The notes under the pieces: generated by a model
Databases searched by the model: none
Told to the model about the DNA's origin: nothing
What the model saw: the letters and a program-made list of their open reading frames with translations, nothing else
Made by a program: the position numbers and the translations under genes
Shown: positions 28,601 to 46,403 of the stretch, piece by piece
Layout of the letters: every line of letters begins with the position of its first letter
How positions within the stretch are numbered: the first letter of the stretch is position 1
Virus record (IMG/VR): IMGVR_UViG_3300036774_000105
Coordinates: 1 to 52,942 of that record
Length of the DNA: 52,942 bases
Strand: one strand, 5' to 3'
DNA from: a virus
Taxonomy: Duplodnaviria > Caudoviricetes

Positions 28601-29053
28601 TTATTCCAGCGGATACAATCCGCCACCATCCCAATTTGATTCATTTACACTGGCCAGAAACGCCGCCCGTTCCTTTGGATAATCGAAGCAGTGAATCGCG
28701 GGGACGGGGATTCCTTTCTGCCGAAGCGCCGCCATAATGCAGGCTGGACAATTACCAGTCAACTCACGCAGTTTCGGCATAATATCCTCGACTGCTTTTT
28801 CTAATTTTCCATCATTCATGGAGACGTATTCCCTTTCATCATCTCCGCTATATTCTTTGAATTGTTCCGGGTCTGGAAGTATTGCAAGGAGACTCTGCAT
28901 GGATGGCTGATCTTCTTCGGTGAGATTGCACATTCCGCAGACGCGATTCGGATTTTTTGTACACCGCTCCTCATGTTTTTTCATATGCCCCGGCGAATAA
29001 CCTTTCTTCCCACAGAAATCGCACCGGTATTGGTTCACCTTTTTTTGCGTCAT
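28601..29053 (-). CDS. Hypothetical Zn-finger protein
   Basis: YRCDFCGK....HE..C..NP..CGMC...CPAC. Confidence 0.6.
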   Translation of the reverse strand: MTQKKVNQYRCDFCGKKGYSPGHMKKHEERCTKNPNRVCGMCNLTEEDQPSMQSLLAILPDPEQFKEYSGDDEREYVSMNDGKLEKAVEDIMPKLRELTGNCPACIMAALRQKGIPVPAIHCFDYPKERAAFLASVNESNWDGGGLYPLE

Positions 29054-29060
29054 AGCCCGC

Positions 29061-30287
29061 CTACCCAGTCACCGAAATATCGGTGTCTTTCCTGCCCACT
29101 GAATAAATTCCAAGACCGGGAAGCTCTCCCACTTCACAGGGTTGTAAGGTTTTCCCCTTGGCTACAATTAGTTTCGATTTCGCTATGTGCGTTGGCATAT
29201 ATTCATCCACCTGATCTATACAGGTCAGGGCGGTTCGCAGATTAATCTTCCCCAAGCAAGCAGGAGGATCGTCTTTCATAGTCAGTTTCTCTGTCTCCTG
29301 CGCCGCCTTTTCATACCAGTCCATGTCCAAGTAGCCGTAACGCATTACTCCCTGGTATGGGTTTGTGGGGTTTGTGGGGTCTGTTATATTTTTATAAGGC
29401 AGCTTGCTTTCGTAGAACATCGGCCCATCTCCATGCCTGGTCATGTATGTTCTGGTCACCAAGTAGATATCCAGGTCGAGTGATGTTTTCACCAATCGTA
29501 GGGCGTCTAAAACGTTTGTCATCCCCGTGCTACTCCGTGTCCCATAGGTCGGGTCCCGTTTTTGATCGAGCAGCATTCCCTGGGCTCCCTCAAACACTAT
29601 CCTTCCCTTCGGGTGCTTTGCCAGGAATCGATCAATCACCGTCTCCTCTGACCAGACGGCGGAATGCTCGATCATCCATTTCGCTCCACGAATGAATAGC
29701 TGGGGAAGGGCTGCAATTTCTACCTTTTCCATTGCAAACTTTTTGAACTCTTCCTTTGGCAGTCCCAATTTATCAAGGCGCCACGGGAGGTGTTCTCCTT
29801 CTATCATCAGGAGAATCTTCATCAACTGAGCCTCTGATTTTTCCAGCAGATCCCGCGCGGTGATTTTCAATTGCCTGAAAATGCTTCTTTCTACCGTCTC
29901 ATTTATCCCGCAGCCGCAGGTGTCGTTTTTCTTTTTGTATTTTACGGAGAACTCGTTCACAAGCATATCGTATGGGGTGGTCACTCTGCAGCGCGGATCG
30001 ATCAGAACTTCCCTCGGTGCTGCGTCTTTCAAAAGTCCAAGCTCTTTCATGAATATAAGAGGGTTCAGAATGAAATGACTTGCCAGAAGAGTCCTGGCCC
30101 CCCGTAGGGAGCCAGAACCGAAGTGATGAAAAACATGACTGCGTCCATCGGCAAGGTTGACGGCATGCGATGCCTGGCCTCCTCCATTGAATCGGATATT
30201 CAAGGTTTCTGAATCCGAAAGGAAATTGATGATGTGCCCTTTCCCTTCGTCGCCATAATTCATTCCAATGACCGCATACGCCTTCAT
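29061..30287 (-). CDS. Adenylosuccinate synthetase-like protein (divergent PurA family)
   Basis: GMNYGDEGKG, RFNGGGQASH, FEGAQGMLLD, TRTYMTRHGDGP, MRYGYLD, ALTCID. Confidence 0.85.
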   Translation of the reverse strand: MKAYAVIGMNYGDEGKGHIINFLSDSETLNIRFNGGGQASHAVNLADGRSHVFHHFGSGSLRGARTLLASHFILNPLIFMKELGLLKDAAPREVLIDPRCRVTTPYDMLVNEFSVKYKKKNDTCGCGINETVERSIFRQLKITARDLLEKSEAQLMKILLMIEGEHLPWRLDKLGLPKEEFKKFAMEKVEIAALPQLFIRGAKWMIEHSAVWSEETVIDRFLAKHPKGRIVFEGAQGMLLDQKRDPTYGTRSSTGMTNVLDALRLVKTSLDLDIYLVTRTYMTRHGDGPMFYESKLPYKNITDPTNPTNPYQGVMRYGYLDMDWYEKAAQETEKLTMKDDPPACLGKINLRTALTCIDQVDEYMPTHIAKSKLIVAKGKTLQPCEVGELPGLGIYSVGRKDTDISVTG

Positions 30288-31738: not shown

Positions 31739-31923
31739 TGGTTTTCCTTTGGTCTCCCTCGCTTCCCGTGTAATCCCTTCATCAGCTTTTTCACTTCCTT
31801 TGCGGTCAGGTCGTAGACGCCCCCCCTGACCGTCTCTTTGGGTTTTATCCCAAGGCGACGGCAGGCGGGCTTCAGGGTATTGACCGAGACCCCCGTCAGG
31901 AAGGCTATCCTTTTGAGGGTCAA
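31735..31923 (-). CDS. Small HTH protein with C-terminal AT-hook-like KRGRPK
   Basis: TLKRIAFLTGVSVNTL; coupled to the Ro60 stop. Confidence 0.6.
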   Translation of the reverse strand: MTLKRIAFLTGVSVNTLKPACRRLGIKPKETVRGGVYDLTAKEVKKLMKGLHGKRGRPKENQ

Positions 31924-33269
31924 TCTTCATCACCCCCTTCCTCTTCCTTTTGCTGGGGCTTGCCCAAGTTTTCGTTTGCCACGATGTAACGCACCACCGA
32001 TTCACTGAAGCCATCGATATGCGTCCACCCTTTGCCATACCCCACTCCGTGCTGGTATGCGGCAACGTTGATCAGGTAGCCCCTGTCGTGCGCCACCACC
32101 ATGTCGTGCGACTGTTCATCCGTGATTGCGATGAGAAGGCTTTTCGGATGCGCGTCATGGCATGCCCGCGCTGCCGCTCCCAGTTGCGTACCACTGTGGG
32201 GCTGGCTTTTCATGATCGCATCCATCAGGGCAAACCCGCGCCTGGGCGGGATTGCGACAATGGTGTCGGAAAATGAATAGACATGTGCATGCTCGCTCAT
32301 CTCCCGGATAATCGCAGCCAGGGCGTTTGCCGCATCGAACCTTCTCATGTCGCTCTTTTCAGAAATCGAGTCTCTCATAGACCCTGACGTATCCACCAGG
32401 ACCGTCACTTCCCCTGGAAGTTTCGGCAGCATGGCGGTTGTCTTGAACATGGCCTCCTCGAGGGCATCCTCCAAAGTCGGGGCGTATCGGGCTGCGGCCA
32501 CAAACCGGAACGGAAGAATCCTGGAGACATTCATTTCCTTGATCCCCTGCCGGATGATGACGTCTTCCACTCCCGCTTGCTGCATGTTCCGCAGATTGCG
32601 AAGCATTGCCAGACCACCGATTTTTCTTTCCAGGATCAGGTCGATAAATGTCAATGCCTTGTCTTTCCCCGCGGACAATGCGGTTTCCCAAGTGTCGGGG
32701 ACAGGCAATTTACCATCGATCAGCTGTTTCCAGATCAGGGCCTGCGCCTCGTCTTTCGGCTTTGCGTGGGTGAGGAACAGAACGTCTCTCAGCTTCACGG
32801 CTCCGTCGCGGTTGTACTTGGCAAGCTGGTACGCATCGAACTTCCCGAAGGCTCGAGCAAGCCCTTTCTTGACCTGGGCGGAGAGCGTATGTTTCTTTCT
32901 CCCGATCCAGTAGATCGACAAAAACTCTGCCAGTTCGTCTGCCCTCTGAATCACCGCCTCAATGGTGGAGCCCACCAGTTCCCCGCCCTCCCTTGCCATT
33001 TCTCTGGCAATCAGAAGAGGCACATGGCGCATGTTCATTTGTGTCCTGGCTTCGATGGCGATTGCCGATGCGATCTCCTGGGACACTTCTGGAACCAGAT
33101 CCGCGATGCGTTGCGCAATGTCCACGCCGTTCTCGTAGAAGGTCTGCTCCCAGAGAAGGCATGCCATGACCGACCTGCGCAGTTCCTGTGCCGCGTTGAT
33201 CCGTGCAGCAGGCGCACCCTCGTGCGTCCTGGGGCCAGGGGTGGAAACCGGTACATTCGTTCTCGACAT
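31920..33269 (-). CDS. rsr: Ro60/Rsr RNA-binding protein (TROVE + vWA)
   Basis: LLWEQTFYE, QRADEL, FDAYQLAKYNRDGAVKLRDVLFLTHAKP, TWETALS, AMLRNLRNM, LPFRF, LVDTSGSM, ITDEQ, IDGFSE. Confidence 0.92.
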   Translation of the reverse strand: MSRTNVPVSTPGPRTHEGAPAARINAAQELRRSVMACLLWEQTFYENGVDIAQRIADLVPEVSQEIASAIAIEARTQMNMRHVPLLIAREMAREGGELVGSTIEAVIQRADELAEFLSIYWIGRKKHTLSAQVKKGLARAFGKFDAYQLAKYNRDGAVKLRDVLFLTHAKPKDEAQALIWKQLIDGKLPVPDTWETALSAGKDKALTFIDLILERKIGGLAMLRNLRNMQQAGVEDVIIRQGIKEMNVSRILPFRFVAAARYAPTLEDALEEAMFKTTAMLPKLPGEVTVLVDTSGSMRDSISEKSDMRRFDAANALAAIIREMSEHAHVYSFSDTIVAIPPRRGFALMDAIMKSQPHSGTQLGAAARACHDAHPKSLLIAITDEQSHDMVVAHDRGYLINVAAYQHGVGYGKGWTHIDGFSESVVRYIVANENLGKPQQKEEEGGDED

Positions 33270-33290
33270 GGAGTCCTCCTCTCCAGTAAT

Positions 33291-33302
33291 AAAAAAGGCC
33301 AG
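33291..33302 (-). terminator. U6 tract after the last Y-like RNA stem (possible attenuator before ro60)
   Basis: GGCCAG/CUGGCC terminal stem followed by UUUUUU. Confidence 0.45.
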
Positions 33303-33364
33303 GGATCATTTCGGCTGCGGGTTTTTCTTGATGATAGAAGTAACCGCCTCCTACGCCACTGGCC
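33297..33364 (-). ncRNA. Y-like RNA 4 (minimal, 68 nt)
   Basis: Terminal stem GGCCAG/CUGGCC; conserved UGGCGUAGGAGGCGGUUACUUC; abuts ro60. Confidence 0.75.
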
Positions 33365-33378
33365 ATGATCTCATAAAA

Positions 33379-33482
33379 TCTCCGGGTGTAGGCGGAAGGG
33401 CGTTAGACGGGCTTGAACCGTCGGGGGCCTGGGTTTTCCCTTGCCCCTCTATCCGAAGTAGCCTTTCCTGTCGCCACGGAGA
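33379..33482 (-). ncRNA. Y-like RNA 3 (104 nt, with T-arm-like hairpin)
   Basis: Stem UCUCCG/CGGAGA; UGGCGACAGGAAAGGCUACUUC; GACGG-UUCAAGC-CCGUC. Confidence 0.75.
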
Positions 33483-33493
33483 ATTGAGAGAAA

Positions 33494-33640
33494 GAGGCTG
33501 GAAATAATCGGTTCGGGTTGCGGCCTTTCGGCCAGCGCTCTTCCGCCTGAGCTACCCTCCCACGAAATGGAAGGGATGGGATTCGAACCCATGACCTCTT
33601 CATTAAAATTGAAGTAACCCGCTCCTGTCGCCACAGCCTC
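33494..33640 (-). ncRNA. yrlA: Y-like RNA 2, YrlA-type with permuted tRNA-like domain (147 nt)
   Basis: Stem GAGGCUG/CAGCCUC; UGGCGACAGGAGCGGGUUACUUC; anticodon arm, AGGUC, T arm (UUCGAAU), loop-closed acceptor stem, D arm. Confidence 0.85.
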
Positions 33641-33654
33641 ATGCTCTCAAAAAT

Positions 33655-33734
33655 GAGCGGGTACGGCCGGATCCGGTTATCCCTTTCGGGAATCGTGACA
33701 AGTTACGAAGTAACCGGTTCCTATCACCACGCTC
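33655..33734 (-). ncRNA. Y-like RNA 1 (80 nt)
   Basis: Stem GAGCG/CGCUC; UGGUGAUAGGAACCGGUUACUUC pairing with UAACCGGAUCC; UCCC-GAAA-GGGA hairpin. Confidence 0.75.
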
Positions 33735-33747
33735 GTTTCAAGTCAAG

Positions 33748-33776
33748 AATCTATCGTATAAGGTGATTTATGTCAA
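33748..33776 (-). promoter_or_regulatory. Sigma70-type promoter TTGACA-17-TAGATT for the Y RNA/ro60 operon
   Basis: Perfect -35 and 17-nt spacer; predicted start about 33741, a few nt before Y RNA 1. Confidence 0.75.
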
Positions 33777-46120: not shown

Positions 46121-46403
46121 ATAGTTCCTCCTCTGTTCTGATTTTGCGGCTGGGCATTGTCAACCAGCCTGCCGCATTAAGGGCGCTCTTGCGCCCTGAC
46201 TCTGCGATTTGATATCCCCCCGGCACTCTTGCCGGCCTGCCCGATCGGGCATTGTCCGCGTTCTTGGCATCGCGGCCCCTCGCCCCTTCCCTTCCCTTCA
46301 TCAGCAGGTCTCGTATGGTGCTTCCCGGCGGTCAGGCTATCCCCTCCTTCTACCGGCGCTTGCTCCCCGATCCCCCGCTTGCTCTTTCAATGATTCTGGT
46401 ATG

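Follow-up and report, generated by a model that had tools for sequence, protein, structure and literature searches.

We analyzed a window of 52,942 bases, the whole of IMG/VR virus record IMGVR_UViG_3300036774_000105 (Caudoviricetes; a complete or near-complete virus), and in it an RNA encoded on the minus strand at positions 33494 to 33640. In our judgement this element is quite likely to be a phage Y RNA of the YrlA class, the second of four tandem modules that stand ahead of rsr, the phage gene for an orthologue of Ro60, and we propose that it binds the Rsr protein and has an effector role. The element has the anatomy of such RNAs, is syntenic with rsr and keeps its shape across its relatives. 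It is a real, well-formed RNA gene and an additional member of a family that has already been described. Statements on published members of that family follow the available parts of the papers cited.

The element, referred to below as module 2, joins its two ends in a long stem and carries a tRNA-like domain. Its parts are listed in 5′ to 3′ order, with the evidence for each in brackets where it applies.

33634 to 33640, minus strand: 5′ strand of the outer stem, GAGGCUG, which pairs with 33494 to 33500 (fold).
33623 to 33633, minus strand: Ro60-binding-type motif UGGCGACAGGA, in the internal loop of the long stem and repeated in all four modules.
33616 to 33621, minus strand: 5′ strand of the inner stem, CGGGUU, which pairs with AACCCG at 33514 to 33519 and closes a multi-helix junction (fold).
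33598 to 33614, minus strand: anticodon-arm-like hairpin CUUCA-AUUUUAA-UGAAG (fold, geometry enrichment, loop profile, covariation).
33593 to 33597, minus strand: variable loop AGGUC, that is A44, G45, G46, U47 and C48 (sequence).
33576 to 33592, minus strand: T arm AUGGG-UUCGAAU-CCCAU (Rfam tRNA and YrlA alignments, fold).
33555 to 33575, minus strand: closed acceptor helix CCCUUCC-AUUUCGU-GGGAGGG, seven base pairs including G3·U70 (sequence, fold).
33537 to 33554, minus strand: U8 and A9 (33554..33553) followed by the D arm GCUC-AGGCGGAA-GAGC (33552..33537), with A14, G15, G18, G19 and A21.
33520 to 33536, minus strand: extra hairpin GC(U)GGCC-GAAA-GGCCGC after the D arm (fold), with a counterpart in Hyphomonadaceae/Terricaulis modules.
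33494 to 33500, minus strand: 3′ strand of the outer stem, CAGCCUC (fold).

A single A separates the inner stem from the anticodon-arm-like hairpin, in whose loop U33 falls at 33608, the UUU triplet at 33607..33605 and A37 at 33604. The hairpin has the dimensions of the anticodon arm of a canonical tRNA, with a 5-bp stem, a 7-nucleotide loop, U33 and a purine at position 37, and is followed by a variable loop of 5 nucleotides. The acceptor runs from its 3′ strand CCCUUCC (33575..33569) through A73 (33568) and the linker UUUCGU (33567..33562) into its 5′ strand GGGAGGG (33561..33555). It includes the pairs G1-C72, G2-C71, G3·U70 and A4-U69, and the fold allows it to be extended to 9 bp (A73-U, U-G) around a UUC triloop. 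The nucleotides of the tRNA tertiary core are all present (U8, A14, the Levitt pair G15/C48, G18G19/U55C56, G46, U54/A58 and G53-C61). Because both ends of the chain join the tRNA between positions 26 and 27, the Ro stem leaves it at its core junction, an arrangement that we named type H. As in YrlA, the T arm comes first and the D arm second, separated by a closed acceptor-like stem-loop and a UA linker, and this order is common to the 110 modules compared below. Sequence and fold agree with a preliminary description of the element, made from the sequence alone, in its account of the four arms, the closed acceptor, the ends between the D and anticodon arms, the placement of G1 at 33561 and A73 at 33568, and the acceptor pairs G1-C72, G2-C71 and G3·U70. 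Its mention of YrlA RNAs and Ro60 is borne out by a gene for a TROVE and VWA protein 225 nucleotides downstream on the same strand.

The minimum free energy (MFE) fold of 33650..33494 reproduces the full layout at -61.9 kcal/mol (z = -3.25), and none of 200 shuffles was as stable. The Rfam YrlA model (RF02553) is the best non-tRNA match, with 30.6 bits on 33621..33511 against a gathering score of 69; relatives score 25-53 bits with this model, whose consensus is without the two extra hairpins. The Rfam tRNA model gives 32.1 bits (gathering score 29) on 33625..33568, where it covers the hairpin, the variable loop, the T arm and the acceptor 3′ strand, skips the D arm and mispairs the acceptor. 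The tmRNA_permuted model reaches 18.6 bits on the T arm and acceptor, against a gathering score of 47. In native order, ARAGORN finds no canonical cloverleaf tRNA in the window and none in 45 native-order modules.

The 5′ motif UGGCGACAGGA contains GGCGA-CAG and is near the published Ro60-binding motif GNCGAAN0-1G, which lies near the 5′ end of bacterial and phage Y RNAs (PMC4201824). Within it, GGCGACAG at 33632..33625 stands in the internal loop of the terminal stem and has one deviation (C for A) from the published motif; in short form the Ro-type motif of module 2 is GGCGACAGG. The Ro-type motifs of relatives include GGUGAAG, GGCGUAG and GGCGAAG. Module 2 and its neighbours form an array upstream of rsr.

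33748 to 33776, minus strand: sigma-70-like promoter TTGACA-17-TAGATT upstream of the array (a consensus match only, one site against 0.3 expected).
33648 to 33745, minus strand: Y RNA module 1, with the Ro-type motif GUGGUGAUAGGA, without a tRNA-like domain, and with a U run at its end (fold z -3.95).
33494 to 33640, minus strand: Y RNA module 2, tRNA-like, with a Ro60-binding stem and a tRNA-like effector domain, both predicted (MFE fold, Rfam YrlA match).
33372 to 33490, minus strand: Y RNA module 3, with the motif GUGGCGACAGGA and, as its sole tRNA-like part, a T-arm-like hairpin GACGG-UUCAAGC-CCGUC (z -2.63).
33283 to 33372, minus strand: Y RNA module 4, with the motif GUGGCGUAGGA and without a tRNA-like part (fold z -1.47, weak).
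31920 to 33269, minus strand: rsr, a Ro60 orthologue of 449 amino acids with TROVE and VWA domains (Pfam TROVE 1.4e-15; PHROG 850).

All four modules fold as an outer stem, an internal loop, an inner stem and a variable distal part. A 24-nucleotide motif, GUGGYGAYAGGA..GGYUACUUC, occurs in four copies between the promoter-like site and rsr, one heading each module. The outer stem of module 4 (GGCCAG/CUGGCC) is followed by UUUUUU and is terminator-like. A consensus scan between the array and rsr gave no second promoter-like site, and 14 nucleotides separate the end of the array from the rsr ribosome-binding region. Module 2 ends at 33494 and the rsr ATG is at 33269, which places the two well within the distance of about 4 kb on the same strand that characterizes YrlA. 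The rsr product matches PHROG 850 ('RNA-binding protein') at 1.1e-49, and its match to VWA_2 (4.5e-5) is under the Pfam cutoff. Related loci, 152 in number, mostly have 2-6 Ro-type motifs within 2.5 kb upstream of rsr on the same strand, as counted with a loose regular expression that mostly finds 0-1 on the reverse strand; in metagenome-assembled genomes of Hyphomonadaceae there are up to eight.

Directly after the inner stem lies a heptamer, UWCUUCN, which by eye is retained whether or not a module has a tRNA-like domain (33611-33617, 33708-33714, 33455-33461 and 33339-33345 in the window, minus strand). In the hairpin type it supplies the 5′ side of the anticodon-like stem, and in many relatives it complements GAAG of the Ro-type motif. 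An open reading frame (ORF) of 79 amino acids at 33403..33642 was considered as a small protein and rejected, since the region is kept as paired RNA with compensatory changes.

Relatives of Rsr with 45-60% identity were gathered from virus, genome and metagenome collections; single-protein scans of these collections gave no relative above 58-60% Rsr identity. A search of cultured-phage DNA gave matches of only 65-78 nucleotides, to the T-to-D region. The YrlA model matched upstream of rsr in eight of the first nine loci, the other (L002; loci carry L numbers here) having tRNA matches only. Scanning for a T arm, closed helix, UA and D arm with a Ro-type motif upstream, we obtained 112 unique modules in 95 loci, two of which were later dropped as probable tRNA dimers, leaving 110. 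Fifteen T-acceptor-D matches without the Ro-motif pattern were excluded. Some of these are genuine tRNA pairs, and four entries (L001:2044, L039, L044 and L124) look like real Y modules, so the pattern-based set is not exhaustive. The module pattern gave no match in crAss001. In the RNAfold MFE structures of the 110 modules, the T arm was recovered in 90, the acceptor in 91 and the D arm in 82.

Among these relatives the anticodon-arm-like hairpin recurs with a fixed geometry. A 5-bp stem with a 7-nucleotide loop that ends 5 nucleotides before the T stem is fully paired in 22 of the 112 modules, whereas 200 shuffles averaged 1.2 and never exceeded 4, and at least four of the five pairs form in 46 of 112 (8.2 in shuffles). 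No other loop length or spacing gave an enrichment comparable to this 5-7-5 hairpin. When spacings of 4 or 5 nucleotides before the T stem are counted, 57 of the 112 modules carry the hairpin. Their loops have C32 in 43 cases, U33 in 51, A or G at position 37 in 38 and 15, respectively, and A38 in 50, and the spacer after the hairpin is AGGUC or UGGUC in 32. The middle triplet is of 23 kinds (GUU in 10 modules, UGU in 6, UGA, UGG and CUU in 4 each, UUU in 3). With 39 columns scored, entropy is 1.72 at position 34, 1.83 at position 35, 1.75 at stem position 42 and 0.35 at position 33. At the inner three stem positions, 43, 47 and 47 of 47 distinct rows can pair, and each position shows two to five kinds of base pair. 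Two-sided changes were seen at four of the five stem pairs in a gapless alignment of 48 modules, 45 of whose rows had been pre-selected for at least four of five pairs.

We also ran a 22-nucleotide pattern made of the window stem, U33, A37 and NGGUC against virus contigs. Of its 82 matches, 41 are genuine tRNAs in canonical order, mostly tRNA-Thr, with two tRNA-Lys that have the loop CUUUUAA; three further matches are Y modules with other triplets. Because the pattern retrieves genuine tRNAs, the hairpin is an anticodon arm at the level of sequence. To judge from the loop profiles, the anticodon-like loop is conserved as a shape, the U-turn frame, and not as a Lys anticodon.

The acceptor was compared across the 110 modules. 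All seven pairs form in 54 of them and six of seven in 47. Pair 3-70 is C-G in 44 modules, G-C in 15, A-U in 14, U-A in 12, G·U in 11, U·G in 5 and something else in 9, while position 73 is U in 36, A in 32, C in 27 and G in 14. G3·U70 and A73 occur together in six. Within the 54 perfect helices, G·U stands at 5-68 in nine and at 3-70 in nine. G3·U70 and A73 are present in the window, but as an alanine identity set they are unconserved in the 110 relatives, and the window acceptor is closed, with no CCA encoded. The set GGG...UCC-A recurs in a Hyphomonadaceae group (L003, L004 and L008) and in Streptomyces phage BRock, where it may have a lineage-specific role, though it is no feature of the family. 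G3·U70/A73 reads as one of many interchangeable acceptor states and not as an alanine identity set. The preliminary description had interpreted Lys(UUU) and the Ala-type G3·U70/A73 as identity elements, had named their conservation in homologues as a check, and had held that free variation would speak against its proposal. Free variation is what the comparison found, in the triplet as well as in pair 3-70 and position 73, and neither feature holds up as an identity element.

The tRNA-like modules come in two architectures. One of them, seen in 28 modules, has a perfect five-base pairing between the stretch that precedes the variable loop and the bases immediately after the D arm, where shuffling of partners gave a mean of 8.7 and a maximum of 17. 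These modules have the layout of Salmonella YrlA, with a predicted anticodon stem made in trans by the two ends of the RNA. Just one of the 110 modules shows both the trans stem and the hairpin, and the layouts are mutually exclusive (for example L053 2193 and L104 2220 as against L035 1677 and L157 858). The window is of the hairpin type, whereas L104 and L105, which share its exact T arm, are of the trans-stem type. The hairpin type accounts for 24 of 39 viral modules and 20 of 70 genome modules.

Hairpin-type modules stand unannotated upstream of Ro-like genes in three cultured phages, namely Streptomyces phage BRock, Xanthomonas phage MET23-P3 and Caulobacter phage CcrColossus. BRock (KX925554.1; L170 2121-2610) has four unannotated Y-RNA-like modules between its tRNA cluster and the Ro-like gp191, the last of which has AUGAUAA as its anticodon-like loop and shows G3·U70 and A73 in its acceptor. 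CcrColossus (NC_019406.1) has two hairpin-bearing modules. Its annotated 'tRNA-Gln' (L172 673-740) shares sequence with the hairpin, the T arm and the 3′ strand of the acceptor in a Y RNA module upstream of the Ro-like gp139 and is probably a mis-call, like the Rfam tRNA match in the window. Gene finders can mistake such Y RNAs for tRNAs.

YrlA is a tRNA mimic that carries modifications made by TruB and DusA and is encoded within 4 kb of Ro60 on the same strand (PMC4201824). Its crystal structure is L-shaped, and the term 'circularly permuted tRNA' has already been applied to it by Wang et al., who discuss dimeric tRNA transcripts as an origin (10.1101/312249). Module 2 resembles YrlA (RF02553; known from Salmonella Typhimurium, Mycobacterium smegmatis, mycobacteriophages and CcrColossus) in its Ro60/Rsr neighbour on the same strand, its 5′ GNCGA-type motif in an end-to-end stem, its T arm 5′ of the D arm, its closed acceptor and UA, and its tertiary-core nucleotides. 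The published 'V stem-loop' or 'long variable loop' occupies the site of the window hairpin. In Salmonella YrlA, however, the 5′ and 3′ strands together build the anticodon stem, and an anticodon loop is absent (10.1101/312249), whereas the window has an intact hairpin and its ends at 26/27. Module 2 also differs from YrlA in its extra GAAA hairpin after the D arm, its place among four tandem modules and its Rfam score of 30.6 compared with 69.

Other systems share single features with the locus. Thermus phage phiLo has two Y-like RNAs, Yrl1 and Yrl2, directly upstream of its Ro60 gene, and its Ro60 binds both of them and host PNPase in vitro (PMC12135203). The phiLo Ro60 is 26% identical to the window Rsr, and its RNAs are stem-bulge-stem structures with a CGAA motif; 'tRNA-like' and 'anticodon' have no mention in the available text of that paper (PMC12135203). 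Deinococcus radiodurans Yrn1 is an Rsr-bound Y RNA with tRNA-like features and a potential 5-bp 'anticodon arm' (PMC4201824), but its T and D elements are oriented otherwise, its loop has 6 nucleotides, a variable arm is lacking, the Ro helix is conserved on both strands and the partner is PNPase. Transfer-messenger RNA (tmRNA), including the two-piece permuted form of Alphaproteobacteria, likewise combines G3·U70 and A73 in a tRNA-like domain whose T arm precedes the acceptor strands. Module 2 differs from it in lacking a tag reading frame, pseudoknots and a free CCA end, and in that G3·U70 is unconserved among relatives. Permuted tRNA genes (Cyanidioschyzon merolae, other algae and Thermofilum, cited in 10.1101/312249) likewise have the 3′ half first and an acceptor that is initially closed. 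They are matured via a circular intermediate, whereas in the window the break point carries a conserved, predicted protein-binding stem and the triplet is unconserved.

Several observations weigh against the YrlA reading of module 2 and its hairpin, among them the pre-selection of alignment rows given above. The YrlA score is far under the gathering score, and sub-threshold YrlA matches also occur in 13 of 14 control genomes; because of this, we assigned the family by synteny and comparative anatomy and not by score. The Ro motif GGCGACAG deviates from GNCGAAN0-1G, and its complementary 3′ strand is not recognisable. The outer two stem pairs of the hairpin are weak, mostly U·G, and are unpaired in 14 and 12 of 47 rows. 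RNAfold gives the 5-7-5 hairpin in the exact register in only 5 of 55 modules, although it does give it for the window; otherwise ACUUC tends to pair with GAGGU, or the loop shrinks. Because folding energy rarely recovers the exact register, in many relatives we retained the hairpin on geometry, loop profile and covariation. When the RNA is un-permuted by script, ARAGORN calls the window as tRNA-Lys(ttt) and calls a tRNA in 45 of 45 type-H modules, but it also calls one in 40 of 55 modules without the hairpin. These calls do not discriminate for an anticodon arm and were rejected as evidence for it. Finally, the YrlA literature, in its available parts, names no effector for any member.

PrrC and PARIS target tRNA-Lys, and the preliminary description had suggested that the RNA may be a Ro60-tethered decoy for anticodon nucleases. 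As a decoy or competitive inhibitor, the UUU hairpin would soak up or block a host nuclease directed at tRNA-Lys, and the triplets of relatives would correspond to other nucleases. The phage setting suits this idea, as does the hairpin itself, which differs from the anticodon arm of a phage tRNA-Lys(UUU) that shares its stem only in having A32 for C32 (two such CUUUUAA tRNAs were found). The larger share of the hairpin type among viral than among genome modules also speaks for it, together with the variability of triplet positions 34-35, which rank with the most variable columns next to near-invariant positions 33 and 38, and with a locus (L007) whose two hairpin modules have the triplets GAU and GCA. 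The idea is not new, as it is in print for Salmonella YrlA, which was uncut by an SOS-induced anticodon nuclease and might competitively inhibit it (Hughes et al. 2020, PMC7790460). We nevertheless regard a decoy as rather unlikely. About half of the tRNA-like modules are without the hairpin, including L104 and L105 with the window's own T arm, and chromosomal loci of Acidobacteriota and Hyphomonadaceae commonly have the hairpin type too. Neutral drift in a loop constrained in shape would equally yield free triplets, and no anticodon nuclease or tRNA repair gene was found among the 10 neighbouring ORFs scanned. A second suggestion was a two-piece aminoacylatable RNA, produced by an RNase P cut before G1 (33561), trimming to A73 and addition of CCA, and charged by AlaRS via G3·U70. 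The perfect 7-bp acceptor with G1-C72, G2-C71, G3·U70 and A73 would fit, the GGG...UCC-A set is repeated in L003, L004, L008 and BRock, and the M. smegmatis YrlA, likewise built with a 7-bp stem, is cleaved in vitro by RNase P RNA and acquires CCA in vivo (PMC4201824). For the Salmonella and Deinococcus RNAs, though, the same authors did not detect cleavage (PMC4201824). The free variation at 3-70 and position 73, G·U being no commoner at 3-70 than at 5-68, the full set of acceptor pairs in just 54 of 110 modules, with many acceptors being 6 bp and a tetraloop, and the absence of an encoded CCA from the window make this proposal very improbable; a 9-bp helix with a 3-nucleotide loop, if formed, would also be an atypical RNase P site.

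A different possibility is that the array acts in cis as the leader of the rsr mRNA, its four modules serving as Rsr sites in the 5′ untranslated region for autocontrol, which would be compatible with our preferred explanation of module 2 as a YrlA-class Y RNA. The single promoter-like site upstream of module 1, with none found between the array and rsr, the distance of 14 nucleotides to the ribosome-binding region and the arrays that immediately precede rsr in the 152 loci, mostly with 2-6 modules, are all consistent with a leader. Against this, modules 1 and 4 have U runs after their stems, which suggest discrete RNAs or attenuation, published Y RNAs are stable and separate (PMC4201824), and the promoter scan is a consensus match only. 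A leader is thus an unlikely account of the array. It is scarcely credible that the element is a true permuted tRNA gene, matured via a circle to tRNA-Lys as in some algae and archaea, or a functionless, decaying relic of a tRNA dimer. All the tRNA parts are there, ARAGORN sees tRNA-Lys once the RNA is un-permuted, and the extra hairpin after the D arm would suit an origin by tandem duplication. The break at 26/27, however, is filled by a conserved Ro-type stem, the triplets vary regardless of the rest of the molecule, and a bacterial enzyme for such processing is not reported in the available text of 10.1101/312249. A relic is disfavoured by the compensatory changes that maintain the structure and by its association with rsr across phyla.

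Further features were observed elsewhere on the minus strand of the window. A 408-amino-acid adenylosuccinate-synthetase-like protein is encoded at 29061-30287 and matches PHROG 1211 of the PurZ type ('2-aminooxy adenylosuccinate synthetase') at 4.8e-50. Given this PurZ-like gene, the phage may carry 2-aminoadenine instead of adenine in its DNA. Directly downstream of it, at 28601-29053, is a 150-amino-acid ORF with a short match to HNH/intron-like endonuclease PHROGs (1.5e-8). At 46150-46206 there is a match to the type-P5 twister ribozyme (38.2 bits compared with the Rfam threshold of 37.6, E 1.7e-4).

Taking module 2 as a YrlA-class Y RNA, and by extension from what is described for the Y RNA family, the ring of the phage Rsr would use the 5′ motif to bind the terminal stem, and the domain shaped like a tRNA would be the effector module. 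This domain may tether or gate Rsr to a host factor that reads tRNA shape or structured RNA; by analogy with RYPER of D. radiodurans and with phage phiLo, the partner would most likely be an exoribonuclease such as PNPase, or else a factor that binds the tRNA elbow. The phage would thereby redirect host RNA decay or repair during infection. The layout suggests an origin by tandem tRNA duplication with loss of both outer parts, in which case the anticodon arm would be represented twice, by the 5′ hairpin and by the GAAA hairpin that follows the D arm.

For the window itself the result is mostly a clarification: the element belongs to an RNA family already known, here in a phage version, and the identity features that stood out are unconserved. 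What is added to the family is that the V stem-loop has the geometry of an anticodon arm and its loop signature, that there are two exclusive architectures, and that the modules form tandem arrays upstream of rsr. The available texts on YrlA and Y RNAs state neither the anticodon-arm character nor the split into two topologies, and have no statement of a 7-nucleotide anticodon-type loop with a 5-nucleotide variable loop in the V element, although their figures and supplements may draw one. Because many members offer a full anticodon stem-loop, the candidate partners of YrlA widen to enzymes that bind the anticodon loop. A more far-reaching reading, which strikes us as rather improbable, is that about 40% of the tRNA-like Y RNAs beside Ro60 genes are complete tRNAs opened at 26/27 with a Ro60-binding stem at the core junction, and not, as drawn in publications, tRNAs that lack an anticodon loop and have a long variable loop; in them the frame (C32, U33, R37, A38) would be fixed and positions 34-36 free or diversifying. 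Were the triplet functional, each Ro60-tethered module would show a different 'anticodon' to nucleases or modification enzymes, and the arrays of modules in phages and bacteria would be panels of baits or sensors.

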